A stretch of DNA of 64,000 nucleotides from a virus. Under the pieces are notes generated by a model. That model searched no databases and was not told where the DNA came from. It saw only the letters and a program-made list of their open reading frames with translations. Location: the IMG/VR virus record IMGVR_UViG_3300028888_000141, positions 75-64,074 of that record; one strand, written 5' to 3'. This document shows positions 46,601 through 63,938 of this stretch, in pieces; the stretch's first letter is position 1; each line of letters begins with the position of its first letter. A program made the position numbers and the translations under genes.

Positions 46601-49600
46601 CAAGGGTGGCAACAAACAATGCTATTGAATCATAACTAACCTGGGCTATCGTTTCTGAGATAATTCGGAACGTATTAACCATTAGTACTAAAGTGGTTAA
46701 GCCAGAAGTTATAACACTTTGTAATGAACTAAATAATCCTATGTTGACGCATACGCCAAGCAAAAGTCCTAAAGTCGCAGCCATAGCAGTTAATCCAGCT
46801 ATAACGGGAACTATATTAAGACCGATCTGTATAACAACAAGGAATACTGAAGAAAGCACGACAAGAGCACTAATTAAAGCGTTCATTGTGACTATCGCTT
46901 GAGAAATGTTTCCACTCGTAGAAAGTTTAGTTAAACCTGCTACGAATAATACCATAATATTAAGAATTGAACTAAATAATCTTATTCCAATAGAAGTAAA
47001 TACACCTAAAGCACCAACAATGGTTAATACTTTCATGAATTCTATTAAGAATCCTTCCATACCAACCATGGCTGCGGTTAGACTTGTAAGAAGAAATACA
47101 GTACTTGCTACATCACCAATCTGTGCGATTACAGCGATGGCTCCAGCAAATTCAGAAATTACAGAAAGCAAAGATCTGAATCCTATTATTCCAAGAGCCA
47201 TTAAAGGTAGTGCTACACCAAGTAATGTTGCAACAACAGCTATTGTAGCAACAAACGGTATCATTGCCGTAAGAGCATCGCCCAATGCACCGAGTAGAAA
47301 CACGGTATTAACTACATTACCAGCATCAGCGACCATTGCCACTAGGTCTACAAATCCAACTATAGCAAGAAGAATTGCAGATAGACCTAAAAGACCGCCA
47401 ATGAATCCTAAAGCCATTGTTCCACCGCTAAAAGTCATTACAGCGCCCATAAGACCTGCTATAAGAGCAAATGCTGCTATAGCTGGAACTAACTTTAGCA
47501 TAGCTATGCCAAGGCTATCGAGTAATGTTACGGTGTTTGATACGTCACCAATCTGTGCTATTCCGGCTAAAGCCAGAGTGATCAGACCGATCATACTAAT
47601 TATAGCAAGTAGACCTAATCCGCCTTGTAATGCTTCTTGAGGAGTCTTTAAACTCTTTCCAAGAACACCCATGATGAACATCATAGCAAATATCGCGGGT
47701 GTGAGTAAGAGAATACCTCCAGCAAGGGCTACAAGTTCTCCTTCATTTCCTTCAAATATACGTCCGGCGGTTCCGAGCGCTATTGCTAACAAACTTAATG
47801 AAGTTGTCATAGCAAGCACTGTAGTCCATACCGATTTAGTATCTTTAATTTTTACATCTTCGATTAATCTCGTAGCTCCAGCCATAACTAAAGCCAACAT
47901 AGAGATACAAGCAGACATAGCCATAAGGCCTACTGGATCTTCAACGGGAACTTGGGCAAGTAATGCCATGATTCCTGCTAGAACTCCAATAACGCCCAAC
48001 AACACATACATCTGCTTTGTAGCATTTTTATTATATGTAAGAGTTCCCTGTCCAAGGGTTCTTGTAATAAATGATAAACTTAACAGTAACCTAGAAATAC
48101 CACCAGCGGCTGATAAAATTGATCGCCAGTCATTCTTTGATACAAAATATAAAGCAGTTCCTATAGCTCCTATAGCAACTATAGCGGGAAGAATTGCTTG
48201 AAGCGGTTTTGCTGTTCCGGTTGAATTAAATGTTGATAATGTGTGTATAAACAACGATAATGTGTAAAGTACAACGCCCATCGATACCGCAGCAGAAAGA
48301 ACTGTCTTTGGATCAAATAATGTTAAGGGAACCAAAGATGTTGCTATGATAGCAAAAGCACCTGCAGCCGCTATTATAGGACCCCATTTTGCATCTTTTA
48401 CAGAATTAACAAGACCAATTAAACCTTCAAAAGCGATAAATATCAATGCCATGGTTTCAATCCAAGCTAATGTTCCAGCCTGCTGAACCTCAAGCATGAC
48501 CTTGGACATATTTCTCAACAGAACAGCTAATCCAAAAAGCATCAGCATCATTCCAAAGAAATTCTGCTTTGTCTTATCGCTAGTTATACCATTTTTCCAG
48601 CTAAGTCTAAATGCACTTTCACCAGAAATAGCTTTTGAAATATACGAAATCGCACCAGCAAATACAATAAGTACTAGTGTTACTTTAAGAAGATTAGCAA
48701 TAAATGAGCCGAAATCCATCTTGGAGTATTCTTCAAGAATGGCTTCCATTTGCTTAAGGACAACCATAAACGCAAGCATTGAAATGGCTGCACCCATCAT
48801 TCCAAATCCACTAGCTTTGTTGAAATGTCCAATTAACGCCATCGCTCCAGCCATTAAAACCATGACAGTAGCTATACGAGCAGTAATTCCGATCCACTTA
48901 AGGATTCCATATTCCATGGCAGCATACTGATCTATAATGCTAACCATACCTTTAAGAACCGCTAAAAAGGCCAACATGGCTACCGATACACCCATCATTC
49001 CGAGGCCAGCGCCTTTTGCACCTTTTTCGAGAACATACATCGCTGCCGTTAAAGCACCAACTATTAAGCCAAGTCTTAATAAACCAGTCCAAAACGACAT
49101 CGCGTCCATGGTATTAATTTCTTGCATCGCCTTGACAAATATCCATACAGCTGCTGCAAAATACAATACAAGTTTTGCTACAGCTTTAATTGCCACGGCT
49201 CTTCTTAAACCTTCGATGAGACGTTTAAGAGGAAGTGTTAACATTCTTAATGTATTTTCTGCCTGAGTAATAAGATTGGCTAAAGCTACTTCTTTATTTA
49301 TAGCCTTCTTTAACTTTAAAAGATGAAACCTATAAGCCATATAAATGCCCGTTATAGCAACAAGCATTAAGAAAATTGCACCTAAAGCCCAATTAATTTT
49401 TGTTAATTTACTTTCTGGTAAGTATGCCAAAGCCCAAGCTGCAGCAGTTACTATAAGTATAGCTTCTGCAAACATTCTAACTGATTTAGCAACCGCCAAA
49501 ATCGTTTCCGCTTTATTCTTACCAGTTATACTATCAATAAGTTCGTTAAGAGTCTTGCTAAAATGTAACAAACTATAAGTAGCAGAGAAGATAAGAATCT

Positions 49601-51971
49601 CCTGAATAACTGCCAAAATCTTAACAAAATTAGTAATTAAGAAGTTATAAATTCCTAATACAACGTCTTTAATCTTATTAGCTAATGTTACAACAAGACC
49701 GCCAATCATAACGAAGACGTTTACAATCTCGCTAATGGTTGCGGCAATCATAGAATGAAGCCTATCATAAGCGTCAGCAACTCCGTCAAAGAATGATTTT
49801 ATAGCATAGAAGAATGCTCCTACAACTGTAAGAACACCATTTATTAATCTATTATTAAGTAATCCATTAAATAATGAAACAAATCCTTCTGCAATTTTAG
49901 TTAAGAAAGAAAAGTCAAACGATGTTATAGCATTAGCTAAAGCGTGGAATATTGATGCTATTGCTGATAATGCTGGACCAATTAACGAAAGAAGAATTAC
50001 CAAAACATTAGCTATTACCGTTCCAGCAATTCTAAAAGCTGCAGTAAGAAGTTCGACAGCACTTCTCAAAGCATTAGAATTAAGAAGAACATCAACAACC
50101 ATTTCAAGAATGGTAGCTAATACTTCAGCAAACTCAAATACTACATCAACAAGAGGTCCAAATGTCTCTAAAATTCTTACAACAGCTCTTATTACTCTAA
50201 AAGAAAAGACTACAAGAGATTTAAGAATTGTAAAGAATTTATATGAGATAGTAACAAGACTTCTCTGAGCTTTATAAGAAAGTGCAAACTTTGAAGTAAG
50301 GTCAGCCATTGCCTCCGTGAGGCCTATGACTCCATTCATTCCTCCGTCAAGTATTACTTTAAAGAAACCTTCGAGAATGGGACCAACAACAGAAGCAACT
50401 GTATTACCAAGATTCTTAGCAGTTAATGCTAAATTAAGTAATATTTTTGCTGTTTGTGAAACTCTCTTGTCCCACACGGTATTGCCAAAAGCAGCAGAAG
50501 CAGCATTAGAGAAATCTTCAAACGAAATCTCGCCATTTCTGCACATCTCACGAATTTCGTCGTCAGTCTTCTCTAAAGTCTCACCAAGCTGATGTAAAAT
50601 CGTGTCGACGCTCTCTGCTGATTCGGTGCTAGTTGAAGAAAGGTCATCGATCAATTCCTGAACAGTCTTCGTTCCTTCTTTTGTCTGATCGAAGAGCTCT
50701 TTCATTGCATTGAAATCTGCTCCTGAAATATCCGAAAGGCCGGACACAGCTTTGGATACTGCATCTTGACCACCCATCCATACAGCAAACAGATCATGTA
50801 ATTTTGCAGATAGGTTCGTAACTATTCTCGTGAATGCTTCAACGATACTTATCTCTTCTTTTATGTTCGGAAACTCCATTTTGAAATTTAGAGCTTTACG
50901 AACATTATTTATCGACAATCTAAGATCATTAAACAGAGGAGTAACCTGAGTTCTTATGGGAGCGATAAAGTCAGCACCAATTTTAGACAATGCAAACTTC
51001 ATATTACTGAAAGCACCAGAGAATGTGTTATTAGCATCCTTTGCATGCTCACCATAAGCACTATCCATTGCCATAGCAAGGGTCTCGAAACTTATCTTAC
51101 CCTTTGAAGCCATGTCTCGAATGTCCTGCTCAGTGGCATTAGCAGTCTCTCCGATTTCATTTAGATAGTCCTTAATAACTGCAGCAGCACTTATACCAAG
51201 ACTAGCAAAGCTCTGCCAGTCTTTACCCATAACTCTTCCCTGACCAGCGATTCTTTCAAAGATGCCTGCAACCTGATCATATTCTGTATTAGCCATTGCG
51301 GCAACACCAGAAATTGCTCTCAGAGCAACCTGCATCTCGGTTCTCATTTTTCCGGATGAATCAGCAAATCTTTCGGAGAAGTGCGTTACGTCAACCTGCG
51401 AAGTAGCAAGAACTGAAGCTGCTTTAGCTGCTGAGTCAAGACCATATGCAGTATCAGCAACTGCATAGTTAGCAGCATCCATTGCTACTACAAGATCTTC
51501 TGTATAACCAGTTAATTCCTGTATCTTTGTTGCATCAGCATCCATGGCCATGGCAAGTTTCGCTACACCTTCTGCTTCTTTTCCAAAGATACCTTCAAGC
51601 TGGAATTTAGCTTTAGCAATGTTAGCTGCTCTGTTTGTACCACCGGTTACAATCTGATGCCAAGGTTTAGCAAGCAAACCGAGTAATTTTCCGCCCAAAG
51701 TCATCACTTCATTGGTGACTCTCTGAACAGCAGTCATTCCGACTATACCAAAAGTTGAAAAACGATCTGAAAGTGACTGAATGTTATCAGCTACTTTAGA
51801 TAGATCAATATTATTTGCAGCTTTTGTTAAACTGTCGAAACTTTTAGAATCGAACTGTAAAGAATCTTTAAGATTGTCTACCGCTTCAACTGTTTTGGAG
51901 ACGTTTTCTATAAATTGACCATTGTCAAACTGTATCTCTACTACTTTAGTTTCAACAACTTCTTCACTCAT
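43650..51971 (-). CDS. Tape measure protein
   Basis: 2773 aa, Ala/Leu/Gly-rich helical protein with many hydrophobic segments, SPS motifs, typical position. Confidence 0.9.
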   Translation of the reverse strand: MSEEVVETKVVEIQFDNGQFIENVSKTVEAVDNLKDSLQFDSKSFDSLTKAANNIDLSKVADNIQSLSDRFSTFGIVGMTAVQRVTNEVMTLGGKLLGLLAKPWHQIVTGGTNRAANIAKAKFQLEGIFGKEAEGVAKLAMAMDADATKIQELTGYTEDLVVAMDAANYAVADTAYGLDSAAKAASVLATSQVDVTHFSERFADSSGKMRTEMQVALRAISGVAAMANTEYDQVAGIFERIAGQGRVMGKDWQSFASLGISAAAVIKDYLNEIGETANATEQDIRDMASKGKISFETLAMAMDSAYGEHAKDANNTFSGAFSNMKFALSKIGADFIAPIRTQVTPLFNDLRLSINNVRKALNFKMEFPNIKEEISIVEAFTRIVTNLSAKLHDLFAVWMGGQDAVSKAVSGLSDISGADFNAMKELFDQTKEGTKTVQELIDDLSSTSTESAESVDTILHQLGETLEKTDDEIREMCRNGEISFEDFSNAASAAFGNTVWDKRVSQTAKILLNLALTAKNLGNTVASVVGPILEGFFKVILDGGMNGVIGLTEAMADLTSKFALSYKAQRSLVTISYKFFTILKSLVVFSFRVIRAVVRILETFGPLVDVVFEFAEVLATILEMVVDVLLNSNALRSAVELLTAAFRIAGTVIANVLVILLSLIGPALSAIASIFHALANAITSFDFSFLTKIAEGFVSLFNGLLNNRLINGVLTVVGAFFYAIKSFFDGVADAYDRLHSMIAATISEIVNVFVMIGGLVVTLANKIKDVVLGIYNFLITNFVKILAVIQEILIFSATYSLLHFSKTLNELIDSITGKNKAETILAVAKSVRMFAEAILIVTAAAWALAYLPESKLTKINWALGAIFLMLVAITGIYMAYRFHLLKLKKAINKEVALANLITQAENTLRMLTLPLKRLIEGLRRAVAIKAVAKLVLYFAAAVWIFVKAMQEINTMDAMSFWTGLLRLGLIVGALTAAMYVLEKGAKGAGLGMMGVSVAMLAFLAVLKGMVSIIDQYAAMEYGILKWIGITARIATVMVLMAGAMALIGHFNKASGFGMMGAAISMLAFMVVLKQMEAILEEYSKMDFGSFIANLLKVTLVLIVFAGAISYISKAISGESAFRLSWKNGITSDKTKQNFFGMMLMLFGLAVLLRNMSKVMLEVQQAGTLAWIETMALIFIAFEGLIGLVNSVKDAKWGPIIAAAGAFAIIATSLVPLTLFDPKTVLSAAVSMGVVLYTLSLFIHTLSTFNSTGTAKPLQAILPAIVAIGAIGTALYFVSKNDWRSILSAAGGISRLLLSLSFITRTLGQGTLTYNKNATKQMYVLLGVIGVLAGIMALLAQVPVEDPVGLMAMSACISMLALVMAGATRLIEDVKIKDTKSVWTTVLAMTTSLSLLAIALGTAGRIFEGNEGELVALAGGILLLTPAIFAMMFIMGVLGKSLKTPQEALQGGLGLLAIISMIGLITLALAGIAQIGDVSNTVTLLDSLGIAMLKLVPAIAAFALIAGLMGAVMTFSGGTMALGFIGGLLGLSAILLAIVGFVDLVAMVADAGNVVNTVFLLGALGDALTAMIPFVATIAVVATLLGVALPLMALGIIGFRSLLSVISEFAGAIAVIAQIGDVASTVFLLTSLTAAMVGMEGFLIEFMKVLTIVGALGVFTSIGIRLFSSILNIMVLFVAGLTKLSTSGNISQAIVTMNALISALVVLSSVFLVVIQIGLNIVPVIAGLTAMAATLGLLLGVCVNIGLFSSLQSVITSGLTTLVLMVNTFRIISETIAQVSYDSIALFVATLDLISGIDIKVLFKIALIAIGLMAVANPIAIIGMMSESIINGVGALVKMMQGIYATLIEAQKFEGIKVDGIIEATDQLIRMAGLVTASGLFYSAATMIKNFSEASDKMMQTVSQMMLYDGHYIAAGLAEGSTDATSKALLIAAAMEMGSIFGTSLENFFGIASPSKKTTEDGHYLAAGLSAGSVDSVAQEFLTTGAQGMGDIFGDTLTPIMGEIGDVAGDSLLSHLGVKLDDAQSLIDSFKTENSSSWWGSKVSIGKKPGKGRNPMSWQERSKALASKRPSNFIQSFQSEKEYLEWQAKQEENIAEEGWEDNDWSHFVDDLLKSLGGKDGLLGTLEDIDMSDLNNGISGLGAVSGSSAKNVDKLTQKIDSLMDKYENLWDDAKERANKDLFKGVDDQGDEFLDQIKDIMDQYKNIYKTAVEKTNNEDLFAEVKEDDESFAPETLLNNLEDQVNQVNELNTIIGSLGGRIADNNLRAAISNMSVDDLPELRAMYRMDDTQLAKYEEMYRKKVQANQNKIQNELTGSLSQITGQYTNVAEYVASDASTNILMKNMQAQIDQLNEYNATIGSLMTRVQDLNLREAIAHMGVDSLDELKMLNSMTDAQLDQYIALYNDKIAREAMSIHNELSTELSAAVGQVVDISEFYEKYTAGMENLSTQIASDEATYGAGQSAGNRMGNGFSEGITSSEATTKATETGQTITTNITNGMSDEERMSLITEKTQAIIDTIFAALEESMSTFEKCGFEIVHMICRGLDMAKKQAPVYETASSVADTIRMAIESKYKVFFNTGMMISRGIAEGINSDQMQRVVEGAATSLALKAINSARKKLGVRSPSREFMKIGRYVDEGFAIGLKQYSNLASDEAENMAIGSLTSVQDAISQLSGMLDGSIDVNPVITPTLDLSQVNARSAALSNMFNSRQIAVQAHNDEQQAAMITQLGNILAEQNSEPKSITFNQTNNSPKALSNAEIYRQTRNGFSQLVSALS

Positions 51972-52983: not shown

Positions 52984-54831
52984 TTAAGCCTTCTGTGCAG
53001 ACTCGATAACGATTGCAGAATAAGGAACAGTGAGAGCACCAGAGCATCTGGTCTCAATCAGATACTTCATCTTGTTGATGTCGATATCGAAATCATCAAA
53101 CATAGATACAGCGCCGCCCTTATCAGCACCAACGGTATAGTCGGAAAGATTAACAATAATACCGATAAGATCTCTGTTGGTTCCATCAACAGCTCTCTTC
53201 TGGCCTTCCATAACGGGAACAGTAACAATGCGGCTTACACGCATTGCGGAAGCAACCTCAGCCTCGGTCTTGTAAAGTCTGTGACCCATGTTGTCCTCAA
53301 GAAGGAGCATATCGGTAAGAATATCCTCAGTGGTATAGAACACAGGATTTCCTGATCCCTTATAATCCTTACGAGCCTTAACAGCTGCACGAATATAAGC
53401 CTTAGCCTTGTCGTCATCAGTAGCATCTGAAGAGTACTCAACAAACTGCTTGATGGTGAAGAGATCGTCATCGGTCCAGATAGGTCTGATATGATCGTGC
53501 TGGATGTGAGTTCTGTCAGAAGTGAGCTTTCCATCACCGATGAGGATTGCACGAGCAAGTTCCTCGTCGAGCATCATTCTCATTTCGCCACGAATCCAAG
53601 CAACAACATCGAAATCGGTGATGTCGATAACATCATCACGATCCATTGACTGATGCTTATAGATGGTCTGAGGATCGGTAGATCTCCTGAGCAGGGTGAA
53701 TACCTCATCAAGCTTGGTATCGCCCTTGATGTAACCCTTTGCTCTTGCTTCATCCTCAGTGATGTCTGCAAATACAGACTTAATACGGCTGAAAGGAACA
53801 TGCTTGGTTCCGCTAAGAACACCGGCAACCCAATCGGTATCTCTCTTGATCCATGCAGGAGGATTGTTGAGAGCCTTAGCCTCAGGGAACAGGAATGAAG
53901 GATCATTAACCATATATGCCTGTCTATCCTGAGAATACTCGATATCGGTGCCATGCATAATTACATCTTCAATTCCAAGCTCTTCCTTGTGAGCCAGGAA
54001 AGACTCCTTAAGTGATCCATATCTCTTCATGTCGGCAAGAACAGCTGCCTGCTCTTCTTTTCCGAATACACTGTGAGAAAGCTCTGCGCCGTTAGAATCC
54101 TGATCAAATGCGTTGTGCTTCATAGTTTCATCTTCTCCTTTATTGTTTTTTGCGCCTTTTTCGGCAGCCTGACCAACGAGATAATACAGAACTTTCTTCT
54201 GCTTCTCGTTCATGCTGTTGACAATATCTTCGACGGTCTCTTCACCACTGTCATCAGCGTGGGAAATAGATTCGTCTTTAACATCATCGTTATTCATATT
54301 ATCTTTCTCCTTATCTTCAGAAGCGGGATCGTCTACGATTTTTTCCGCTTTATCTTCCGAATGAGCGAGTTCGAAAATATCATTTTCATCATAGAAAGAC
54401 ATGATAGCTTCATCCGGTTCTTCACCATCGTATGAATGAGCCATAGAAGTATCGATAAATGCTCCGGGATTAGCTCCGGCCAGCACAAGAGATACCTCAC
54501 GGATCATACCATGAATAACGTCTCCACCATTTTTCTTAAGCTTGTTAGCATAAATGGAGAGAGCCTTAATGTCACCATTTGCTACTAATTTCTTAGCATT
54601 TTCTCCCTGAACAGTGTCATTAAATGACAGGTCAGCATACACACCATCATCTCTACGGTGAAGGAGAGCATGACCAAGAACATTCAAGGGACTTGCGTGC
54701 TGGTGATCCCACACGAGAGGAACGGTTTCTCCATCACAATCATCAAAAGCACCAGGTCTAATAGTAAGTCCATCAGCGCACTTAATGTTGTAGCGGGTAG
54801 CCCATCCACTTACATCATGTGTTTTACCCAT
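52984..54831 (-). CDS. Prohead protease-scaffold-major capsid protein fusion
   Basis: HK97-type protease (PLVWDH, LSIYA, EVSLVLAGANP), acidic linker, HK97-fold capsid (EELARAILIGDG, ETRCSGAL). Confidence 0.85.
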   Translation of the reverse strand: MGKTHDVSGWATRYNIKCADGLTIRPGAFDDCDGETVPLVWDHQHASPLNVLGHALLHRRDDGVYADLSFNDTVQGENAKKLVANGDIKALSIYANKLKKNGGDVIHGMIREVSLVLAGANPGAFIDTSMAHSYDGEEPDEAIMSFYDENDIFELAHSEDKAEKIVDDPASEDKEKDNMNNDDVKDESISHADDSGEETVEDIVNSMNEKQKKVLYYLVGQAAEKGAKNNKGEDETMKHNAFDQDSNGAELSHSVFGKEEQAAVLADMKRYGSLKESFLAHKEELGIEDVIMHGTDIEYSQDRQAYMVNDPSFLFPEAKALNNPPAWIKRDTDWVAGVLSGTKHVPFSRIKSVFADITEDEARAKGYIKGDTKLDEVFTLLRRSTDPQTIYKHQSMDRDDVIDITDFDVVAWIRGEMRMMLDEELARAILIGDGKLTSDRTHIQHDHIRPIWTDDDLFTIKQFVEYSSDATDDDKAKAYIRAAVKARKDYKGSGNPVFYTTEDILTDMLLLEDNMGHRLYKTEAEVASAMRVSRIVTVPVMEGQKRAVDGTNRDLIGIIVNLSDYTVGADKGGAVSMFDDFDIDINKMKYLIETRCSGALTVPYSAIVIESAQKA

Positions 54832-56083
54832 TTTGAATTTCCTCCGTCGTCTTACGTATCATGTCTTGATCGAGTTCTTCTGTTTTAGCATTCTCAAGTG
54901 CCTCTTTTGGTTGTGAGAGGTTATTATTGATCAACTGATCTGCCTGAGGATCATTTACAGGTTTCATACCAATAGCCTGTCTAATTTCATTAGAAGTTGC
55001 GATACAGTTCCTAGTAAGCTTATCTGCCAACTCTGCGAAATCAGCTATGGGCATCAGTTTGAATGGATCTCTGAAGAACATGATAGACTGTCCCTGAGTA
55101 CGAGCAGTCTTTGTAAGAAATTTGCGTTTCATTTCATCAGTAATTGCAGAAACTATAGGCTCAATTGTCCTTGTATAATAATTCTGCATTACTTTTTCAT
55201 CAGCGCTACCATCCATGATTGCCTGAGTTATTCCTAACTGACTGTATAGCATATTAGTGAAGTACTCAACTTGTTCGATCATGTTATTATCTATTGATCT
55301 ATTTAGCTGGGTTATCTTCTCTGTGCCATCTGTATAAGCAATACCATATTTAGAGCTGGAGAGCTGAAGTTCAATGTCTTTTCGCCTATTTTCTGCCTGC
55401 TGTCTTCTAGCAGGGGTCTTGATTATATAGGGAAGCTGAATGATCATGTCGAGCTTTCCTGTGGAATTATGCTCGTCAATCGTATCAAGCAAATTAAGTT
55501 TACGTATCAATCTTGATGCTGTGGAACTTGGCTCATTCATTACTGAATAGAACGGGTTCTCAATTATAGCAACAGACTCTTTCGGATACGTTACTTCTTG
55601 CTCATGACCAGTTCGGTCATTATACGCTTTAATACGAACATGATCTGGATACCACTGAACAATCTTTGCGACTCTCATTGATTCTATATCAAAAGAGCCC
55701 TCTGTGATGTTTACATTAGTATCTACAGGCAAAACCGCCACACAACCTTCGTCAAGAAGAGATATTACCAAATCCTGAATGAATTGTCTTCCAGTTTGAT
55801 CTTTGTTAGCGGAAAGAGAAAGACAGGTATTTAATCCGTCTTTTATCTCTTCTTTATAACGGCCATCTTCATCAGTACGTACATGTCTGATGTTTATTGT
55901 AGCTGCGTCCATTGCTATACGGTTGTATACCGCATTAATTATGGAACGTTCATTTCCTCGAGTGAATCTAACTCGATCAGGTCTTGTGTAATAGGCTTCC
56001 CCATAATCCCTGTAATCTTTATAAGGGCCGTCCCTGCCAAGAAAGGCATTCCAGCCATGCTGAAGTCTTTCGACTATGCTCAT
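54824..56083 (-). CDS. Portal protein
   Basis: 419 aa upstream of the capsid gene; IAMDAA, LLDEG, GKLD.IIQLPY, RTIEPI, TSNEIR. Confidence 0.85.
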   Translation of the reverse strand: MSIVERLQHGWNAFLGRDGPYKDYRDYGEAYYTRPDRVRFTRGNERSIINAVYNRIAMDAATINIRHVRTDEDGRYKEEIKDGLNTCLSLSANKDQTGRQFIQDLVISLLDEGCVAVLPVDTNVNITEGSFDIESMRVAKIVQWYPDHVRIKAYNDRTGHEQEVTYPKESVAIIENPFYSVMNEPSSTASRLIRKLNLLDTIDEHNSTGKLDMIIQLPYIIKTPARRQQAENRRKDIELQLSSSKYGIAYTDGTEKITQLNRSIDNNMIEQVEYFTNMLYSQLGITQAIMDGSADEKVMQNYYTRTIEPIVSAITDEMKRKFLTKTARTQGQSIMFFRDPFKLMPIADFAELADKLTRNCIATSNEIRQAIGMKPVNDPQADQLINNNLSQPKEALENAKTEELDQDMIRKTTEEIQNG

Positions 56084-56121
56084 TTCGAATTTTCCTTTCT
56101 TGATACATTATTTAAGATCTT

Positions 56122-56988
56122 TTAAATTTTTACCTTCATCCAATCAGACCAATCACTTGCGGTGAAGTACTCACTGTCTCCTTCGGCATATGCCCCTTGA
56201 ACTACATAGGCTCCTTTGGGAATATCCGAGACCTTGGTACCCTTAAGATCTTCCATAACCGACTTATAGTTCTTGACATCTCTTGCTTTTTTTGCAGCAG
56301 CTGAGATTTCTTCATCAGATGCTGTATCTATGTCTATATTGAGGTTGGTGTGGTGCTCTTGTTTTTTGTCATCTTCTTTTAACCTTAAAGAATCTCTTAT
56401 ATAATTCTTTAAAGCCTCTGAGAAAGCAGCAGGTACATCTTTAGCAAGACTGTTTTTAAGATTTGTTGTGAACTGTTTTCCGATAGTTACTTTTTCTGGA
56501 TGTAGCTTAGAATACTTCTCTTTAAAATCTATTTCTTGCTGCATTCTAGCGTTAAGATCCCTGAGTTCCTGATCACTCATCTTAGAAATATCTTTCTTAG
56601 ACTTATCAGAATCAGTTTTTCTATTCGCTTCTTCTTTCTGCTTCTTCTCAGCTTCTTTACGTTCTTTCTCTTTTCTCTCTGTTTCGTTCTTAGGATCTTC
56701 AACAGAAGTTTCGGTATCAAGTCTACGCCCTTTATGATCATAGACCTTTCCATCAGCAGTTTTGAACGTAGTATTTTTATTAATCTTTTTGTTACTTCCG
56801 GTTCGGAGATTATAGCTTCTAACCATACCTTTCATTTGGTCTTTGGTTAAAATATCCCCATATCTTTTTCGACCTTCTTCAGTAAGTGATCCATCTGGAT
56901 TCTGGAATCTACGAACACCCCATTTCATTCCAAGAATTCCGTGATGCTCAAGATAATCGTAAGATCTAACTACTACATAATCACTCAT
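56122..56988 (-). CDS. HHG-tag protein with charged helical cargo
   Basis: YLEHHGILGMKWGVRRFQNPDGSLTEEGRKRYG. Confidence 0.8.
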   Translation of the reverse strand: MSDYVVVRSYDYLEHHGILGMKWGVRRFQNPDGSLTEEGRKRYGDILTKDQMKGMVRSYNLRTGSNKKINKNTTFKTADGKVYDHKGRRLDTETSVEDPKNETERKEKERKEAEKKQKEEANRKTDSDKSKKDISKMSDQELRDLNARMQQEIDFKEKYSKLHPEKVTIGKQFTTNLKNSLAKDVPAAFSEALKNYIRDSLRLKEDDKKQEHHTNLNIDIDTASDEEISAAAKKARDVKNYKSVMEDLKGTKVSDIPKGAYVVQGAYAEGDSEYFTASDWSDWMKVKI

Positions 56989-57000
56989 AGTTGACCCTCC

Positions 57001-57630
57001 TTATCTTGTCTGTCTAGCAATCTCTTCGAGAGCAGCATATGTCTGTGGATTAGCCATAACATTATTTCCAGTCATCATACTATTTGCATACGCATTACCA
57101 AAACTAGCGGCAGTTGACTGTCCATATGTAGCAAATGTATTAAGTGCCTGTTGGCCTTCAGGACTGGATATGTATCTCATGAGATTATTAAAATCACCAT
57201 TAGACGCCAAAGTTGTAGCTTTATCGACAGTATTAAATGCAGTCATCATTGTGTTCTGCGTCTTGGGGTCTGTAAGCATTTTTCCTAACTGAAGATAGTC
57301 ATTGGTTTTCTCAAGCTGCATTGCTGTATTAACAACCTGACCAAGCATAACCGATGTCATGGTCTTAGCTAAGTAAATAGATCCAGCAATCTTAGCTACA
57401 TCATAAGTATAAGCAGCAACTTTTTTAGCGCCTTCCCAAATTTTTCGTCTGGTTTCGGCATTCTTAATCTTTTTGGCTTCTATTTCTTCTGGGGTTAGCT
57501 CTTTTTTAGTTCTTCTACTTCCACCATTGTATCTAGCGGCTGTATCACTATTCCAGACTCCCCACTTCATTCCTAAAATACCATGATGCTCCAAATAATC
57601 CGGAGACCTTTGTACATAATAAACACTCAT
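57001..57630 (-). CDS. HHG-tag protein
   Basis: YLEHHGILGMKWGVW; start moved to MSVYYV after AGGAG. Confidence 0.75.
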   Translation of the reverse strand: MSVYYVQRSPDYLEHHGILGMKWGVWNSDTAARYNGGSRRTKKELTPEEIEAKKIKNAETRRKIWEGAKKVAAYTYDVAKIAGSIYLAKTMTSVMLGQVVNTAMQLEKTNDYLQLGKMLTDPKTQNTMMTAFNTVDKATTLASNGDFNNLMRYISSPEGQQALNTFATYGQSTAASFGNAYANSMMTGNNVMANPQTYAALEEIARQTR

Positions 57631-57648
57631 ATTGGATCTCCTCATAAA

Positions 57649-57761
57649 AGAATTCCTGCACCATATGAAAGTGCGAAAACCAGCCTATTAAATCGAGGAA
57701 AGGAGACGAGAAAGAACGATTTTCAACCAATTCTCGCACTCTCGTATGATGCAGGAATTCT
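57649..57761. repeat. Long imperfect inverted repeat (about 30-bp stem)
   Basis: agaattcctgca..agtgcga pairs with tcgcact..tgcaggaattct. Confidence 0.75.
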
Positions 57762-57773
57762 AATAAAATATCT

Positions 57774-58226
57774 TTACTTAGACAGAGGATAGATCTTCGA
57801 TGTTGCCTCGTCTAAGCTGCCATCAGCTTTTGCTTTTTCGATAGCTTCAGCTGCATTCTCAGGTATAACCTTGTTGATAAACTCGGTTGCTGCTTCAGTA
57901 TTGGTAGCGAGCTCCATGAAAATTACTGAATATGCAGCCGTCTGCTCGAACTGTTCGCTCAGGGGTCTTCCGGTAGCAGGATCTTTCTTAAGGAATGACT
58001 TACCATCGAGTGATCTCTCACCATAAGCCATAAGAATGAGCTGCTTGAAAAGCTTAATAAGCTCGGGAGTGTTCTGAGCATTTGCTATCCTGGTGATCCA
58101 CTGGTCGAATCCGCCTTCTTTAGAAAGCTCCATCTCCATGATCTCTGCTTCGGAAAGGTTGAAATATACATCTTCCTTTCTCTGGTTTCCAAGATAGTCT
58201 TTGTATTCGATAGTCTTAATGTACAT
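57774..58226 (-). CDS. Putative tail assembly chaperone (gpG-like)
   Basis: Follows the MTP; I.Y.DY.G..R.ED.YFNL, AYGERS.DG..F.K, F.QT.AY...F.EL. Confidence 0.65.
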   Translation of the reverse strand: MYIKTIEYKDYLGNQRKEDVYFNLSEAEIMEMELSKEGGFDQWITRIANAQNTPELIKLFKQLILMAYGERSLDGKSFLKKDPATGRPLSEQFEQTAAYSVIFMELATNTEAATEFINKVIPENAAEAIEKAKADGSLDEATSKIYPLSK

Positions 58227-58306
58227 GTTTTGCTCCTTTCTAAGCACAACAAATTAGGGGCCAGCCGTTATTGACTAGCCCCAGAAAAACATTTTGATTC
58301 TTGCGA

Positions 58307-58999
58307 TTAAGCAAGCATTGCAAGAACTGCGTCGGGAAGAGGAAGATAAGGATCAGTACCGGTCTGTCCGCTTTCTCCATCGGTTCCAAAGAGAGCATCC
58401 TCGAGATCATCAAGCTTCTTCTTAGCTGCAGTCTCAGTGAAGTTGGTGCTGTCAATGGTGAGAATTGAAGTGGGCTTAAGTTCCTTGCCATCAACCTTGG
58501 TGGTGAGAGCAATAGGAGTGGTGGTGAACTCCCAAGAGAACTCAATAGTATCAGGGCTGTCATTAACAGTCTGATAATCTCTCTCTGAAGGAGATGCCTG
58601 ACATCCATAAACGAGGTGAAGCTTATAGCCGTGATCGTTACCATCACTATCGTTACCAATAATGGTTCTATAAGCAAGACCAAAGCTCTTTCTGGACTGC
58701 TGTCCAACAGTTACACCGTTAACAACAGCTTCTCCATTACACTTCTTCCACTCATCGGGATAAGTGAATGCCTTAATGGTTCCCTTGAAGGTCTCTGCTG
58801 AATACAGAGTAACATACTTGATATTATCAGCATACTTATCAGTAGGTTCTGCACCCTCAGGAGTCTCGGTAACACCGGTGATTCCGTTCCAAGCTACTCC
58901 AAGAGGATAAGTGCCATTATCGTTAAGATAAAGGGCACAGTGATCGATTCCAGTCTCGAACAGTCTCTGTCCAATCTGGTCCCAAAGAAGTTTAGACAT
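58307..58999 (-). CDS. Major tail protein
   Basis: GVAWNG, YADNIKY, AFTYP.E, FGLAYRT, YKLHLVYG.A.PSE..Y.TVNDSP....FSWE. Confidence 0.85.
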   Translation of the reverse strand: MSKLLWDQIGQRLFETGIDHCALYLNDNGTYPLGVAWNGITGVTETPEGAEPTDKYADNIKYVTLYSAETFKGTIKAFTYPDEWKKCNGEAVVNGVTVGQQSRKSFGLAYRTIIGNDSDGNDHGYKLHLVYGCQASPSERDYQTVNDSPDTIEFSWEFTTTPIALTTKVDGKELKPTSILTIDSTNFTETAAKKKLDDLEDALFGTDGESGQTGTDPYLPLPDAVLAMLA

Positions 59000-59094
59000 G
59001 ATTTTAATCCTTTCGTTTAAATTGTTTTTGTTTGTTGCTTGCTAAGTGTAAGATTAACTAGGATTATTCCCACACAAAAGCGAATTTATTCATA

Positions 59095-59133
59095 CCCATC
59101 TGCCTTTGGCTATGGTGGGATGATTACTTATTT
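59095..59133. repeat. 39-bp exact direct repeat, copy A
   Basis: cccatctgcctttggctatggtgggatgattacttattt, identical to 60042-60080. Confidence 0.9.
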
Positions 59134-59155
59134 TTCTTTGTATTTCCCATTTCTG

Positions 59156-59731
59156 TCATAGAATACTATGATGAGCAAGATAGTCTTCTTTATTATAAAC
59201 TACATCAAATAAAGAATGTTTAACGACATTTTTCATAGAACGTCCGCCATGAACTCCACGATGGTATAGTTCATCGCCGGGATAAGATACAGTGTAAGAA
59301 TGAGCTAAAAATTCTGGATAATTTTTCGAATAATCTACTATCAGTCTACGTATATAAGATGCTGCTTTTTTTATTTCGGAATCAGGAATATATGATCCTG
59401 GTATACCACCCCAAGCATTGGGATCATTTTGCTGTTTTATAAACTTTTCGATTGAGCTCAAATCATTAATCATATACGGCTTAGCATCTAAATATTTTCC
59501 GGTGCCAGAAACAAAGCTATCATTTTTATTATCGCTAAAATTGTAATTAATTGTTGGTACACGTCTTGTTCCATTCTTATTTTTATCATATATTTTTATT
59601 TGAGCACCGATAAAGTAATATGGAGTTCTTTTATTTAAATTTGGAGAATAATATCCTTGGTGCTGATACGTAGCATCTTTTTTTACATTTGGAGCATATG
59701 TTATGCCATGTTTTATCACTTCATATCTCAT
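59156..59731 (-). CDS. Hypothetical protein ending in several phi-x-H sites and a decayed HHG tag
   Basis: VIKHG, FLAHS, LYHR, VVKHS, YLAHHSIL*QKW. Confidence 0.6.
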   Translation of the reverse strand: MRYEVIKHGITYAPNVKKDATYQHQGYYSPNLNKRTPYYFIGAQIKIYDKNKNGTRRVPTINYNFSDNKNDSFVSGTGKYLDAKPYMINDLSSIEKFIKQQNDPNAWGGIPGSYIPDSEIKKAASYIRRLIVDYSKNYPEFLAHSYTVSYPGDELYHRGVHGGRSMKNVVKHSLFDVVYNKEDYLAHHSIL

Positions 59732-59737
59732 AATTCA

Positions 59738-60046
59738 TCACCTATACAAAGTAAACACATCGTGATAAAGACCGTCACTGACAAAAGGTCGATCATATCG
59801 GCACATTTGGAAATGGTCGGTAACTATGTCAATCATGTCTGGGTCGGCTTCATTACTGATGTAGGTTAACGTGTAACATTTGAACAACAAATACTTCTTG
59901 CTATCAGCATTAAACTGACTTGCTGACTTCCTCTCAAATACAAAACAAGGGTATTTCATTTTGGTGTTGCTAGGTGGCTGGAAGTATACATTGTTCGAGC
60001 CCAAGATTGACTTAAGCTCATTCTGGAGGTCAAGCGTCGTTCCCAT
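59738..60046 (-). CDS. Tail terminator/completion protein, copy 1
   Basis: LGSNNVYFQPP..MKYPCFV..; near the MTP. Confidence 0.65.
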   Translation of the reverse strand: MGTTLDLQNELKSILGSNNVYFQPPSNTKMKYPCFVFERKSASQFNADSKKYLLFKCYTLTYISNEADPDMIDIVTDHFQMCRYDRPFVSDGLYHDVFTLYR

Positions 60047-60080
60047 CTGCCTTTGGCTATGGTGGGATGATTACTTATTT
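60042..60080. repeat. 39-bp exact direct repeat, copy B
   Basis: Spans the stop of 60075-60881 and the ATG of 59738-60046. Confidence 0.9.
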
Positions 60081-60881
60081 GTGATTTCTATCCCATTCTT
60101 CTTTTGCTTTACTCCATTCTTCATCTTCGAATCCTTCGTAAGTTTTTCTAAAATCATGAAAAGCTGTAAGATCTCCACCTTGACTTTCCATACTTTTTAA
60201 CATTTCTGGTTCATTCTTTTTAAACCAATCATATGTTCTATCGTATGCTCTACTAGAAGCTTTATAACGTTCTTCGGAATCATAGAAGTCCTCGGAATCA
60301 TAGAAGTCCATAGCATTCTTTCTATCTTCTTTACTAGTTATTCTGGTCGATTCGGGGAGCTCTCCAGGTTTCTTATCAGATCTCTGTTTATCGATTGACC
60401 TATCGATCATCTCGACTCTCAAATCCCTGAATCCGTTAAGGAATTCTCTTCCGGCGTTTATGACTTTGCCACTAACAACACTACCAGCAAGAGCAGCTAC
60501 AGGAAGCAAAGGGTTAACACTTAAAACACCAGCAGCCATTAATCCAGCTAGAGTTCCTGCTCCGACAATGCCAGTTGCTCCTGTAGCAACAGATGTTGCA
60601 GCGTTGCGGTATTTTGTCTTTGTCATCCTATTTACTTTATTGGCTGAAACGAGAGCTTTCTTCTCGGAATAAGACAAATTAGGGTCCTGAATATTCTTCT
60701 TCAGTTGGCGAACGGTATAGTTTCGACCATAATGCTTCCTACCAGCCTCAGTAAGTGATCCATCAGGGTTCTGATATCGTCTGATGCCCCATTTCATTCC
60801 GAGAATGCCATGATGAGCTAGGTAATCTTCTTTGTCGTAAACTTCATCTGGTTTTGGATTTCTCAACACATAATAATCCAT
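60075..60881 (-). CDS. HHG-tag protein with a hydrophobic hairpin cargo
   Basis: YLAHHGILGMKWGIRRYQNPDGSLTEAGRKHYG; Ala/Gly/Val-rich stretch. Confidence 0.8.
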   Translation of the reverse strand: MDYYVLRNPKPDEVYDKEDYLAHHGILGMKWGIRRYQNPDGSLTEAGRKHYGRNYTVRQLKKNIQDPNLSYSEKKALVSANKVNRMTKTKYRNAATSVATGATGIVGAGTLAGLMAAGVLSVNPLLPVAALAGSVVSGKVINAGREFLNGFRDLRVEMIDRSIDKQRSDKKPGELPESTRITSKEDRKNAMDFYDSEDFYDSEERYKASSRAYDRTYDWFKKNEPEMLKSMESQGGDLTAFHDFRKTYEGFEDEEWSKAKEEWDRNHK

Positions 60882-60899
60882 TTTGATTTCCTTTCTGGA

Positions 60900-62645
60900 T
60901 TACTCGAAAGCATCCTGATTGTTCTTGTAAGCTATAAACGCATCCATCGAAGCCGCTACGGGGTCAATCTTTGCCTCATAACGTTTCTTCAACAGTTTGC
61001 GGTTACCATTGGTATCCTCCATGACAATACAGTTACCCATTGCAAACTGCATTATGCCTTCGTTGAATACCCATAGCTTATCGGCAGCCAATTTCTTTAT
61101 CTCGCCCAAAGGAACTGACTCAGTTTTAGAACCCTGAATGACTTTCTCTATGCCAAATGGACCATTCTCAGATGCCCAACGCTCAACAAACTCTTTTGCA
61201 TTGTAAGGGTCATAGCCAAAGCATCGAATGTCATACTCCATTCTTGTTATAAAGTCATCAAGTTCATCGTATACTTGCATCAGATCAAGAATTACTCCAT
61301 CCATAATTACCAATGATCCTTCATTGATGAATTCCTGGTACTTATTTCTCATTGATGGAGGTAACTGATCAAGAGTTCTACTTGAAATGTAGTTTCGAGT
61401 CTTAATACCGAATGCTCCACCAGGAAGCGGGAACAAAAAGCTGAATGCACAGAAGTCATCTCCTTGTGAAAGGTCTGCTCCCATAGCACAAGCCATGCCC
61501 TTAAGACTATATAATCTCTGAGGTTTTGTCTCCTCAAATGTAAAGAAGTAAGTTAAGCCTTCCATCGGTATACCGAATCGTTTAGCGAGAATATCATTCC
61601 TTGTGGATGGAACGTTTTCGGCTCTATCTACTTCTATTCTATAGGTTTCATAGCTTACGGTCTTTCCGAGATTAGGGTTGGCTTTAAGCCACATCTCTTC
61701 CATTCCAACTTCACTTACATCATCGAGCTTATACCACCAAATACTTACATGTGGATTCTCATACTCGCCTCGTAAGATCTTTGTTAATTCTATTTTGATG
61801 TCATCGCCAGGACCATTTCGCACAGTACCTTCGGATGACACCGATAGAATTAACCAATCATCGTTCTTTGCACAGCTCTGTTCCAGTGGAGTCATTACAT
61901 CTTCTCGGATGTCTCCAGAAAGCCACTCATCAATTGTTGCAATCTTACACCTAGAACCCTGAAGCTTATCGATGTCCATAGGGACTATCTCTAAGATAGA
62001 GTTTGTAAGGAAGTCTTCAATTCCTTTCTTCGTAGACGCGAGTTTACAACGATTTGCTTTACTTCCTGTAGTATTCTGTAATGATCCTTCTGTTAAGAAC
62101 TTAAACAAAGGTCCTTTCGATCTCGTGATTGCTGTTTTTAGTGAAGACATAACCTCTTCGGCCTGTCTCATTGTTGGTGCTGTAGTTACTTGCTTTGTCG
62201 TACTTGTGTCAACGGTAAGGAAGTAACTCTGAACACACGATTCATACAATGTTTTAGCAGCACCTCTTCCGATGATTAGGTACTGCTTGTTGATAAGCCT
62301 GGTTTTTACTTCGCGGTATTCGAAATGGCCACCGCCTTCTTCCCAATCATTAGGAACAAACACTGACTTATTCTTGAAGTAATACCAGCCAAAGATTTCC
62401 TCGCCCCATAACTTGAATGTATCAAGCATATGGAGATCCGAACCGTCAGTTAATGTTAACTCTTTCTCGCTAAAAGCAATCCATCCTTCTACTATAGTGT
62501 CATCATAGTAAATATCTGGATCTCTTATTAGTTCATCGATGCGGTTCATCTCCATGGAGACTTCACGGTTGACTGGTATCTCTCCGCGTAATACCGCATC
62601 ACGGAACTGACCGTAATAATACGGTGTCGCGGTGTTTGATAGCAT
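60900..62645 (-). CDS. terL: Terminase large subunit
   Basis: IGRGAAKT Walker A, TIDEW Walker B, W.KANPNLG, GADLS..DF, GYDPYNA, KIDPVAA. Confidence 0.9.
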   Translation of the reverse strand: MLSNTATPYYYGQFRDAVLRGEIPVNREVSMEMNRIDELIRDPDIYYDDTIVEGWIAFSEKELTLTDGSDLHMLDTFKLWGEEIFGWYYFKNKSVFVPNDWEEGGGHFEYREVKTRLINKQYLIIGRGAAKTLYESCVQSYFLTVDTSTTKQVTTAPTMRQAEEVMSSLKTAITRSKGPLFKFLTEGSLQNTTGSKANRCKLASTKKGIEDFLTNSILEIVPMDIDKLQGSRCKIATIDEWLSGDIREDVMTPLEQSCAKNDDWLILSVSSEGTVRNGPGDDIKIELTKILRGEYENPHVSIWWYKLDDVSEVGMEEMWLKANPNLGKTVSYETYRIEVDRAENVPSTRNDILAKRFGIPMEGLTYFFTFEETKPQRLYSLKGMACAMGADLSQGDDFCAFSFLFPLPGGAFGIKTRNYISSRTLDQLPPSMRNKYQEFINEGSLVIMDGVILDLMQVYDELDDFITRMEYDIRCFGYDPYNAKEFVERWASENGPFGIEKVIQGSKTESVPLGEIKKLAADKLWVFNEGIMQFAMGNCIVMEDTNGNRKLLKKRYEAKIDPVAASMDAFIAYKNNQDAFE

Positions 62646-62654
62646 GTGTACCTC

Positions 62655-62987
62655 CTATTCTTCTGAAGCCGCTCCAGAATATAACTTCATAGCGGCAATA
62701 GCTTCGGCATACATACTGTCTGTCTTAATCTGTGAGTCGAGGGCTTCTACTTTCTTCTGTAGAAGTTTGTTCTCATTACGTAATTTCTCCAGCTCTAACT
62801 GCTTTTCCATAGAACCAAGCTTTAAAAAGTGACAAGTCTCCTGTGACGTTGCGGTTCCATTAAGTAATCTCTGCTCTACTAAGTTGTATGAAAGATTAAT
62901 TAACTGTTTTTCTCGCTCGTCGGGATCGACTGCCCTTTTAATTCTCTTAACTTCTACTGGAGCTCCCTCTTCTTTCTTTCTTCCCAA
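62655..62987 (-). CDS. Putative terminase small subunit
   Basis: 110 aa directly upstream of terL; helical/coiled coil. Confidence 0.55.
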   Translation of the reverse strand: MGRKKEEGAPVEVKRIKRAVDPDEREKQLINLSYNLVEQRLLNGTATSQETCHFLKLGSMEKQLELEKLRNENKLLQKKVEALDSQIKTDSMYAEAIAAMKLYSGAASEE

Positions 62988-63025
62988 GACAATCGACCTC
63001 CTTTCCTTATAGTTAAAAAATATCG

Positions 63026-63052
63026 ATTGTAAAAAAATGTTATCCTATTATG
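63026..63052 (+). promoter_or_regulatory. 27-bp promoter motif copy on the plus strand
   Basis: ATTGTA-AAAAAATGTTATCC-TATTAT-G followed by the hairpin gagga-ataa-tcctc. Confidence 0.6.
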
Positions 63053-63086
63053 AGGAATAATCCTCGATTAATGAAGGGAGAACATT

Positions 63087-63338
63087 ATGGCTAATAACTA
63101 TACAAAACATATCTTCTTTGATGACGAAGAAACAGCTTTAAGATTTAAAGCTCTTTATGGATGTGTAATAGACGTGGATGCTAATAGCTATTGGGTTCGT
63201 AATTATTATGGACCAAATGCTAAAGATAAAATTCATGTGTATTATCACGGGACTAGTGAGGAGTTTGAAGAGATTGTAAAGGCAATAAAATTGAAGAAGA
63301 AAAGATGGGGAGGTCATTTATGTTACTACTTTGAGTAA
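63087..63338 (+). CDS. Inverted cassette gene, hypothetical protein
   Basis: Only credible plus-strand gene; GGGAG SD; terminator caggagt..actcctg + T-tract at 63348-63385. Confidence 0.75.
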   Translation: MANNYTKHIFFDDEETALRFKALYGCVIDVDANSYWVRNYYGPNAKDKIHVYYHGTSEEFEEIVKAIKLKKKRWGGHLCYYFE

Positions 63339-63383
63339 CAAAAAGTTCAGGAGTTGAAATATACTCCTGTCCTTTTCTTTTTT

Positions 63384-63938
63384 TCAAACCCATCTATTTT
63401 TCTTATAGTCAAACATCCGCACAGGTATGCCATTCTCAAGCATTCTCTGAACGTTCAATGACATAGCTGAATCAATTCTGTCATCTTCTGGCATGATTGC
63501 AAAACCTTTTGTGCTTTCGGTAGTCATAGCAATATCTTTCTGCCTTCTTATTGCTCTTTCGTCAGTTTCTCCATTACCACTGATTCGTTCTACTCTCCAA
63601 TTACCAACATTGTTTCGAACTCTTGGATCAGTTGTGTAAACTACAACATTCTTATAGCCATTCTTTGCTAAATATTCCTGAACTCTGGTGTCTGCACCAG
63701 GAGCATCGCCTATTAAAACCTTAGCGTTGGCTTTAATAATACGATTTACTTCCTGCTTCATCGCACTATTGAGTGGTTCGTCATAGCTTACTTTGCCACT
63801 TATGAAAACTTTGTCGCTGCTTTTGTATTTGTTTCCATAATGTTTCTTTCCGTCTTCTGTAAGACTGCCATCAGCATTCTGGTATCTTCGCACTCCCCAC
63901 TTTTGGCCGAGGACGCCATGATGAGCTAAATATGTCAT
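63384..63938 (-). CDS. HHG-tag protein with a SLOG/DprA-like Rossmannoid cargo
   Basis: YLAHHGVLGQKWGVRRYQNADGSLT; VFISG..IGDAPGAD..VQ.YL..KDIAM. Confidence 0.7.
   Translation of the reverse strand: MTYLAHHGVLGQKWGVRRYQNADGSLTEDGKKHYGNKYKSSDKVFISGKVSYDEPLNSAMKQEVNRIIKANAKVLIGDAPGADTRVQEYLAKNGYKNVVVYTTDPRVRNNVGNWRVERISGNGETDERAIRRQKDIAMTTESTKGFAIMPEDDRIDSAMSLNVQRMLENGIPVRMFDYKKNRWV

Follow-up and report, generated by a model that had tools for sequence, protein, structure and literature searches.

In phage T4, the internal proteins IPI–III and Alt carry capsid-targeting sequences that the prohead protease gp21 cuts at (L/I)-x-Glu. The assembly proteases of clan SH include gp4 of phage HK97 (family S78) and the herpesvirus assemblin, which cuts at the (V/L/I)-x-Ala/Ser bond. 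The virion RNA polymerase (vRNAP) of phage N4 and the two-barrel enzyme gp66 of the crAss-like phage phi14:2 travel inside the particle and are injected to initiate transcription. MuF polymorphic toxins of temperate phages fuse a constant head-associated module to C-terminal domains that vary and are in some cases toxin-like. Here, we analyze a 64,000-nucleotide stretch of DNA from a gut-type phage (hereafter, the window; positions 75–64074 of the 64,074-bp IMG/VR virus record IMGVR_UViG_3300028888_000141, rated complete by CheckV) that encodes a prohead protease fused to the major capsid protein, four proteins with a shared tag of the Pfam family DUF7211 and an RNA polymerase (RNAP) with a similar motif. 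We lean, with moderate confidence, toward a reading in which the capsid-fused S78 protease would cut after hydrophobic-x-His and the tagged proteins, taken up by the procapsid, would be trimmed and later ejected along with the DNA.

The proposed system resembles that of T4 in that a short peptide on unrelated proteins holds the hydrophobic-x-P1 site of the prohead protease and the cargo would be ejected with the DNA. It differs from the gp21 system in having His rather than Glu at P1 and an S78 protease that is fused to every capsid subunit. Furthermore, the conserved part of the tag lies past the cut, the tags recur within polyproteins and the phages are siphophages of Gram-positive bacteria. 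The S78 domain, the hydrophobic P3, the defined P1 and the common Ser at P1′ are shared with HK97 gp4 and assemblin, whereas protease, spacer and capsid form one chain here. We know of no report of His at P1 and made no dedicated search on cleavage specificity.

Unlike N4 vRNAP and gp66, the polymerase in the window is a protein of about 1000 amino acids with built-in helix-turn-helix (HTH) domains in a siphophage, and its packaging is suggested by the tag and by the annotation of one orthologue. The tagged proteins are similar to MuF toxins in combining a constant module with variable C-terminal domains. The constant part is here a 45-residue tag with a protease site, and the MuF (SPP1 gp7-like) domain had no Pfam match in the ten proteins scanned. 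Orthologous systems, in which the capsid fusion has His sites, tagged genes neighbor the gene for the large terminase subunit (TerL) and the RNAP bears the second type of tag (type 2), are found in Lactococcus phage 1706 (ORF7, ORF10 and ORF75), Faecalibacterium phage FP_oengus (gp69, gp71 and gp55) and Rhodococcus phage ReqiPepy6 (gp15–21 and gp25). The 1706 tags are divergent (H-R-G and H-K-G), and ReqiPepy6 has a seven-gene array. Among the papers retrieved by literature searches, some of them represented by their titles, there was no description of the tag system or of a virion RNAP in this lineage, and a search by name found no paper mentioning DUF7211. The papers found on capsid–protease fusions are, by their titles and abstracts, genome announcements. 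A targeting peptide that bears a protease site is a principle known from T4. The novelty lies in the use of His at the site, the fusion of the protease to the capsid protein, the arrangement in polyproteins, the existence of two types of tag and the tagging of a polymerase.

The protease–spacer–capsid fusion

The fusion protein (52984–54831; 615 amino acids) joins a Peptidase_S78 prohead protease and an HK97-type capsid domain in one chain and matches phrog_3270 with an E-value of 3.6e-208. Residues H43, S92, H107 and E112 are invariant in all 60 sequences of the protease alignment (the query and 59 of the 120 listed homologues). The distance between H43 and S92 is 49 residues, which we take to be the spacing of the catalytic His and Ser of HK97 gp4. 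Sequence searches of the PDB with the fusion and with its 60-sequence profile returned 0 matches.

Between the two domains lies an acidic spacer with a net charge of about −27 and an isoelectric point (pI) of 4.3, as computed for residues 133–293. The seven hydrophobic-x-His (phi-x-H) sites listed for this linker in a preliminary description of the DNA were all confirmed: MAHS, LAHS, ISHA, MKHN, LSHS, LAHK and IMHG, with His at residues 132, 157, 191, 239, 253, 281 and 293 (codons at 54436, 54361, 54259, 54115, 54073, 53989 and 53953). These are the sole His residues within positions 128–300 of the fusion, and M, L or I stands at −2 in 7/7.

To measure conservation, we aligned 117 fusion sequences. 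Besides the query and FP_oengus gp71, these comprised 115 of the 120 listed homologues, the other 5 having been dropped for a length outside 560–660 amino acids. The spacer is the least conserved part of this alignment, with columns next to the sites that are mostly 0–30% identical to the query. The seven His columns, on the other hand, are conserved at 100, 94, 67, 89, 61, 99 and 89%. H132 lies directly past the conserved protease domain, and conservation rises again directly past H293. L, I, M, V or F occupies −2 in 669 of the 709 spacer His (94%) versus 12–20% for K, Q, N, S and T, and D or E is found at −3 to −5 in 588/709. The pattern extends to more distant orthologues, with 6/6 spacer His in 1706 ORF10 and 7/9 in ReqiPepy6 gp25. 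As judged from these alignments, constraint falls on the phi-x-His sites, and the rest of the acidic spacer is variable. The hydrophobic P3, fixed P1 and Ser P1′ also follow the site logic of related assembly proteases, and cleavage of the spacer after hydrophobic-x-His is for this reason predicted with high confidence.

The DUF7211 tag in the window and in relatives

Four minus-strand open reading frames (ORFs) of the window carry the motif Y-L-(A/E)-H-H-G-(I/V)-L-G-(M/Q)-K-W-G-(V/I) (tagged proteins 1 to 4; Table 1). All four score above the gathering cut-off (27 bits) of DUF7211 (PF23847), a Pfam family of unknown function, at 27.2–36.8 bits, and when all six frames of the complete 64,074-bp record were searched, the same four were the only matches (32.5–39.9 bits). 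The preliminary description had recognized these proteins as sharing an N-terminal motif ahead of unrelated C-termini. The motif holds for all four, and its continuation, RR(Y/F)QNxDGSLT, is indeed present in three, with tagged protein 3 diverging past KWGV. In the window, the tag starts at residues 3, 20, 17 and 12 of tagged proteins 1 to 4, respectively. It is not strictly N-terminal, relatives being polyproteins with up to 5 tags. The cargo parts are mutually unrelated within the window (pairwise BLASTP with best E-values of 0.26–5.5 or no match). However, the C-terminal part of tagged protein 2 belongs to a conserved family that is common to many tagged proteins.

The tags of the window have charges of +0.9 to +4.0, and the proteins that bear them are basic (pI 8.7–9.6). 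At the DNA level, the copies are just 64–80% identical and have many synonymous differences, so that conservation acts on the peptide. Searches of Pfam (E ≤ 1) and NCBIfam found nothing credible for the four cargoes or for a neighboring 191-amino-acid ORF, and a PDB sequence search with the tag profile gave 0 matches. The cargo of tagged protein 1 is a domain of about 140 residues that has no Pfam family, gives a weak ESM Atlas lead to DprA-like clusters and forms the first unit of multi-tag polyproteins (774–1038 amino acids) in relatives. In tagged protein 2, the tag is followed by a hydrophobic stretch and then by the conserved helical C-terminal domain (DFYDS...FHDFRKTYEG). Tagged protein 4, whose cargo is rich in Lys and Glu, starts 12 nt past the stop codon of tagged protein 3, and the two look like a split form of the two-tag proteins of relatives.

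Remnants of further tags lie nearby. A fossil tag reads DYLAHHSIL, stop, QKWE and is adjoined by a 44-nt direct repeat (59090–59133 and 60037–60080; 95% identical) that brackets a 102-amino-acid ORF and the 191-amino-acid ORF. The latter has a second, more decayed tag (DELYHRGVHGG) with FLAHS ahead of it. A 423-amino-acid relative (P0006) has an AHS...DELYHHG junction (71% identical over 21 residues) followed by a tag and a cargo like that of tagged protein 2. The N-terminal domains of the 191-amino-acid ORF and of P0006 had no BLASTP match to each other.

Tagged proteins are abundant outside the window. A search with the 268-residue tagged protein 2 retrieved 1761 proteins of 147–469 amino acids at E ≤ 0.001 among 3976 candidates, and a pattern search of the best 120 of these identified 98 tags near the N-terminus and 85 internal tags, many proteins having both. 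When used against 1.84 billion representative sequences, a profile of the four tags matched 29,141 proteins at E ≤ 0.001 (15,130 at ≤ 1e-10), the top matches being as long as 1569 amino acids and containing as many as 5 matched stretches. Counted by regular expression, which missed all tags in 5 proteins, 252 proteins had 0 (5 proteins), 1 (64), 2 (145), 3 (24), 4 (13) or 5 (1) tags at a median spacing of 223 residues. Among the tagged proteins of relatives (P0365, P0291, P0367, P0024 and positions 2079–2696 of locus L024), some end in a Gln_amidase domain, a papain-fold glutamine deamidase toxin domain (PF15644) seen with both tag types, and others in a GNAT acetyltransferase.

The invariant core of the tag is L-x-H-(H/Y/W/F)-G-(I/V)-x-G-x-(K/R)-W-G, with acidic residues ahead of it. 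At the level of sequence, the tag contains a site of the spacer type, its L-x-H matching the [LIMVF]-x-H of 669/709 spacer His. Among 267 internal tags, L stands at −2 of the invariant His in 95%, and D, N or E dominates at −4 to −8. Furthermore, an additional [LIMVF]-x-H is present 4–30 residues upstream in 170 of these tags versus 378 of 9775 control windows (3.9%), a 16-fold enrichment; a narrower count gave 36 of 85 internal tags versus 2.0% in controls. Ser follows the His in 90 of the 170 upstream sites, as it does in the spacer. Two sites that bracket a short acidic peptide fit the expectation for polyprotein processing. Of seven polyprotein junctions displayed, six have the upstream site and one (P0398) has A-Q-H-S instead. 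In P0074, a cut at the upstream site would leave an N-terminus nearly identical to the protein's own N-terminal tag. The L-x-H is also retained in tags that start at residue 3–5 (tagged protein 1 of the window, P0112 and P0090), where there is nothing to separate. This suggests that the site serves recognition beyond cutting units apart.

The RNA polymerase, the lineage and the gene layout

A single-chain two-barrel polymerase with HTH domains was previously predicted for this lineage in a preprint (bioRxiv 10.1101/842583). The RNAP of the window has the full-length phrog_4291 match and the DxDGD loop expected of YonO-like two-barrel polymerases, and the phrog_4291 family is labeled “RNA-dependent RNA polymerase.” Across its entire length, the RNAP of the window has 35% identity to 1706 ORF75 (E 1e-165), and the two proteins share the ADFDGD motif. 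The preliminary description had this RNAP begin with a tag-like motif and had located its gene at the other end of the genome. The motif (YLEHYGTPRHSGRYPWGSG) is present, although at residues 19–37 rather than at the very start. As for the location, prophage relatives have the RNAP gene about 5 kb upstream of the terminase gene, and we rejected a position far from the head genes as an artefact of linearizing a complete record.

A search with RNAP residues 8–62 among proteins shorter than 543 amino acids retrieved polymerase fragments and proteins of 408–468 amino acids without HTH domains. The latter carry the type-2 motif twice, at the N-terminus and near residue 200–250. A scan of viral contigs with one such two-tag protein (P0303) found no relative. 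When 150 type-1 segments (the DUF7211 tag) were compared with 77 type-2 segments by hhalign, the alignment covered the prefix acidic...L-x-H-(H/Y)-G only (15 columns, E 3.6e-05, probability 71.5%). Because nothing but the prefix can be aligned between the two tag types, the shared element is the site. On these findings, the RNAP motif is a second modular tag that has just the site-bearing prefix in common with DUF7211, and because of this prefix the RNAP is probably carried in the virion too.

The annotation of phage 1706 (EU081845) is consistent with this prediction. The RNAP orthologue ORF75, with LQHYGTKRHSGRYPWGSG at its N-terminus, is labeled “structural protein,” as is ORF7, which lies just upstream of TerL and has two divergent tags (ILQHRGVIGMRWG and ILLHKGVKGMKWG). 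These labels are said to come from the SDS-PAGE (gel electrophoresis) and LC-MS/MS (liquid chromatography–tandem mass spectrometry) work of Garneau et al. in 2008. In the same phage, the major tail protein ORF13 (L006, 9741–10478) has ten consecutive Thr and then HHD at its end.

The components also occur together across the lineage. We identified the capsid fusion in 244 and the RNAP N-terminus in 246 of 50,697 phage records, at near-equal counts per genus. The tag, which is a short and hence insensitive tblastn query, matched in 39 of the records, all within genera that have both the fusion and the RNAP N-terminus. FP_oengus gp69, located between TerL and the portal gene, is tagged. ReqiPepy6 (L008, 6186–11936) has seven consecutive tagged genes (gp15–gp21) in the same interval and an internal tag in gp13. 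Each of the seven opens with (D/S/E)FLAHYGVKGMKWG and continues with unrelated sequence, and together they make up the “genome expansion” of this phage between TerL and the portal gene.

A tag scan of one genome per prokaryote species yielded 74 loci, mostly from gut and rumen Firmicutes, with 1–9 tags each. TerL (61–72% identical) was present in 67 of them, the portal protein in 58, the fusion in 55 and the RNAP in 39; for the 43 loci that span 15 kb or more, the respective numbers were 41, 40, 38 and 33. In the usual arrangement, the RNAP gene is followed by a tagged gene, TerL, further tagged genes, the portal gene and the fusion. Tagged genes are found for the most part in the interval from TerL to the portal gene or immediately ahead of TerL. 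The module was also seen on contigs assigned by binning to Methanosphaera, Collinsella, Bacteroidaceae and Muribaculaceae (L022, L065, L066 and L019/L040), and these assignments are probably binning errors rather than true hosts.

All large ORFs of the record are on the minus strand (Table 1). In the window, the block with the major tail protein and tail assembly chaperone genes (region 57774–60046) lies between TerL and the portal gene, whereas it follows the capsid gene in FP_oengus and in most genome loci where both were found. The different order suggests a rearrangement, possibly via the tag-bearing genes. In the tape-measure-like protein (43650–51971; 2773 amino acids), the central part is a very long series of hydrophobic, membrane-like segments, an unusual trait among tape measure proteins. 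A promoter-like box of 27 bp (about TTCGCAAAAATTTCAT..CCTATAATG) was displayed in 19 copies. Eighteen are on the minus strand within 4552–26227, the early and replication half, and one of these lies upstream of the RNAP operon. The remaining copy (63026, plus strand) precedes the sole plus-strand ORF (63087–63338) and is the only one in the structural region.

Table 1. Features of the tag system and neighboring genes, in window coordinates.
Feature	Position	Strand	Description
RNAP	637–3606	minus	989 amino acids; predicted single-chain two-barrel enzyme with HTH domains; phrog_4291, 1076 bits over residues 19–988
Type-2 tag of RNAP	3481–3552	minus	residues 19–42
HK97-type major capsid domain	52984–53952	minus	PF05065 on residues 356–608; predicted mature N-terminus G294
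Acidic spacer (scaffold or delta-like)	53953–54450	minus	residues 128–293
Prohead serine protease domain (Peptidase_S78)	54451–54831	minus	residues 1–127; PF04586, E 4.6e-07
Portal protein	54824–56083	minus	PF04860, E 1.2e-23
Tagged protein 4	56122–56988	minus	288 amino acids, pI 9.0; tag 56851–56955, from residue 12; DUF7211 36.8 bits
Tagged protein 3	57001–57645	minus	214 amino acids, pI 9.5; tag 57547–57597, from residue 17; DUF7211 31.7 bits
Tail assembly chaperone	57774–58247		
Major tail protein	58307–58999		phrog_2645
Fossil tag	59142–59185	minus	end of ORF 59156–59731
Tagged protein 2	60075–60881	minus	268 amino acids, pI 8.7; tag 60720–60824, from residue 20; DUF7211 34.0 bits
TerL	60900–62645	minus	named after homologues annotated TerL in FP_oengus and 1706
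Tagged protein 1	63384–63938	minus	184 amino acids, pI 9.6; tag 63828–63932, residues 3–37; DUF7211 27.2 bits

Proposed mechanism, competing explanations and implications

We propose that, after assembly of the shell, the protease would cut past the His of [D/E]-x-(L/I/M)-x-His sites. The cuts would free the protease at H132, chop the spacer into peptides of 12–48 residues and expose the capsid N-terminus at G294. DUF7211 is a module of about 45 residues on basic proteins, with a first conserved element, (D/N)-(Y/E/F)-L-x-H-(H/Y)-G, that represents the same site. Tagged proteins, including the multi-tag polyproteins of relatives, would be captured inside the procapsid, where the basic tag may dock on the acidic spacer or in the substrate groove of the capsid-borne protease. 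The protease would then cleave the cargo at the tag and in many cases also a few residues ahead of it, at a second site. Spacer peptides would leave the head, and the cargo, too large to leave, would stay inside and be ejected with the DNA. From the motifs, their conservation and enrichment, their co-occurrence in the lineage and the structural annotation of two orthologues, we infer cleavage, loading, the docking partner and ejection.

Several observations weigh against the capture and ejection of tagged cargo. The best-conserved part of the tag (GxKWGVRRYQNxDGSLT) is downstream of the proposed cut and would remain on the mature protein. The tag is thus no removable N-terminal leader, and it is often found inside polyproteins. 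The position of the conserved part relative to the cut is unlike that in the T4 leader, so the tag could come into play at a later stage or serve some other function. No separate upstream site accompanies 97 of the 267 internal tags, and the likeness between the two tag types is short, with a probability of 71.5%. The counts of spacer sites come from related sequences and are not independent events, so that the weight lies on the contrast with neighboring columns. Likewise, the 74 loci were seeded with one exact peptide pattern, which biases the sample to close relatives and makes co-occurrence partly a matter of shared descent. The structural labels in 1706 are database annotation of orthologues rather than data on the phage studied here. 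Moreover, 1706 ORF62 and ORF71 are labeled structural as well, and no tag was seen in either ORF62 or residues 1–114 of ORF71; presence in the virion therefore does not need a tag.

Some of these points would be accommodated if the phi-x-His sites were true protease sites that do no more than separate units, with DUF7211 as a working domain of the mature proteins (binding, for example, DNA, the portal or a host target) and any head loading dependent on something else. The conserved part of the tag would then be retained for its function, the second sites upstream of internal tags would suffice to separate the units and untagged structural proteins would be unsurprising. We consider such a processing role unlikely as the whole explanation, though it is the alternative that we take most seriously. 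It does not account for the L-x-H of tags that begin at residue 3–5 or for the two otherwise different tag types having exactly the site-bearing prefix in common. Tagged proteins could also be accessory (moron-like) proteins associated with membranes or lysis, their resemblance to the spacer sites being a coincidence of short motifs. Indeed, several cargoes have membrane-like hydrophobic stretches, and in two 20-kb loci (L024 and L078) the tagged genes have lysis (endolysin) genes or a recombinase as neighbors, and no head gene is found up to 10 kb away. This explanation is improbable given that tagged genes are mostly located in the interval from TerL to the portal gene or immediately ahead of TerL, that 1706 ORF7 is labeled structural, that sites are enriched 16-fold beside internal tags and that the tag has no hydrophobic run like that of a signal peptide.

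Polyproteins with up to 5 tags, and the invariant His, Gly and Trp and the N-x-D-G turn of the tag, would be compatible with a module that cuts the polyprotein by itself, without the prohead protease. We regard self-cleavage as very improbable, because the tag has no match to a known autoproteolytic family, its site pattern is that of the spacer of a recognizable protease and stand-alone N-terminal tags have nothing to remove. Least credible of all is a recombination cassette boundary, in which the tag would be conserved as DNA for the swapping of cargo genes. The fossil tag and the 44-nt direct repeat do show past recombination at tag-bearing genes. However, the peptide is nearly invariant across 29,141 clusters, and the divergence of the tag DNA between copies, with its many synonymous differences, led us to reject a signal at the DNA level.

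The loading of tagged cargo through the capsid-fused protease could have wider consequences, which we put forward tentatively and hold with less assurance than the mechanism itself. A protease domain is part of every capsid subunit, so the procapsid could present hundreds of docking sites for L-x-His substrates on its inner face. The result would be a reprogrammable, high-capacity delivery system for any protein with the 45-residue tag, or for up to five per polyprotein, that would be cut free and injected across a lineage of Firmicutes and Actinobacteria phages. The cargo would include an RNAP that starts transcription at phage-private promoters without the host enzyme.

The proposal can be tested directly on cultivable phages such as 1706, FP_oengus, ReqiPepy6 and many SEA-PHAGES isolates. 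If true, it would provide a simple tag for putting foreign proteins into phage heads and would add a new cleavage specificity, His at P1, to the HK97-type prohead proteases. The DUF7211 family, which marks at least 29,141 protein clusters, would gain a function. Furthermore, a widespread lineage of siphophages of gut, rumen, dairy and soil bacteria would be one that injects its own RNAP together with a variable set of proteins.

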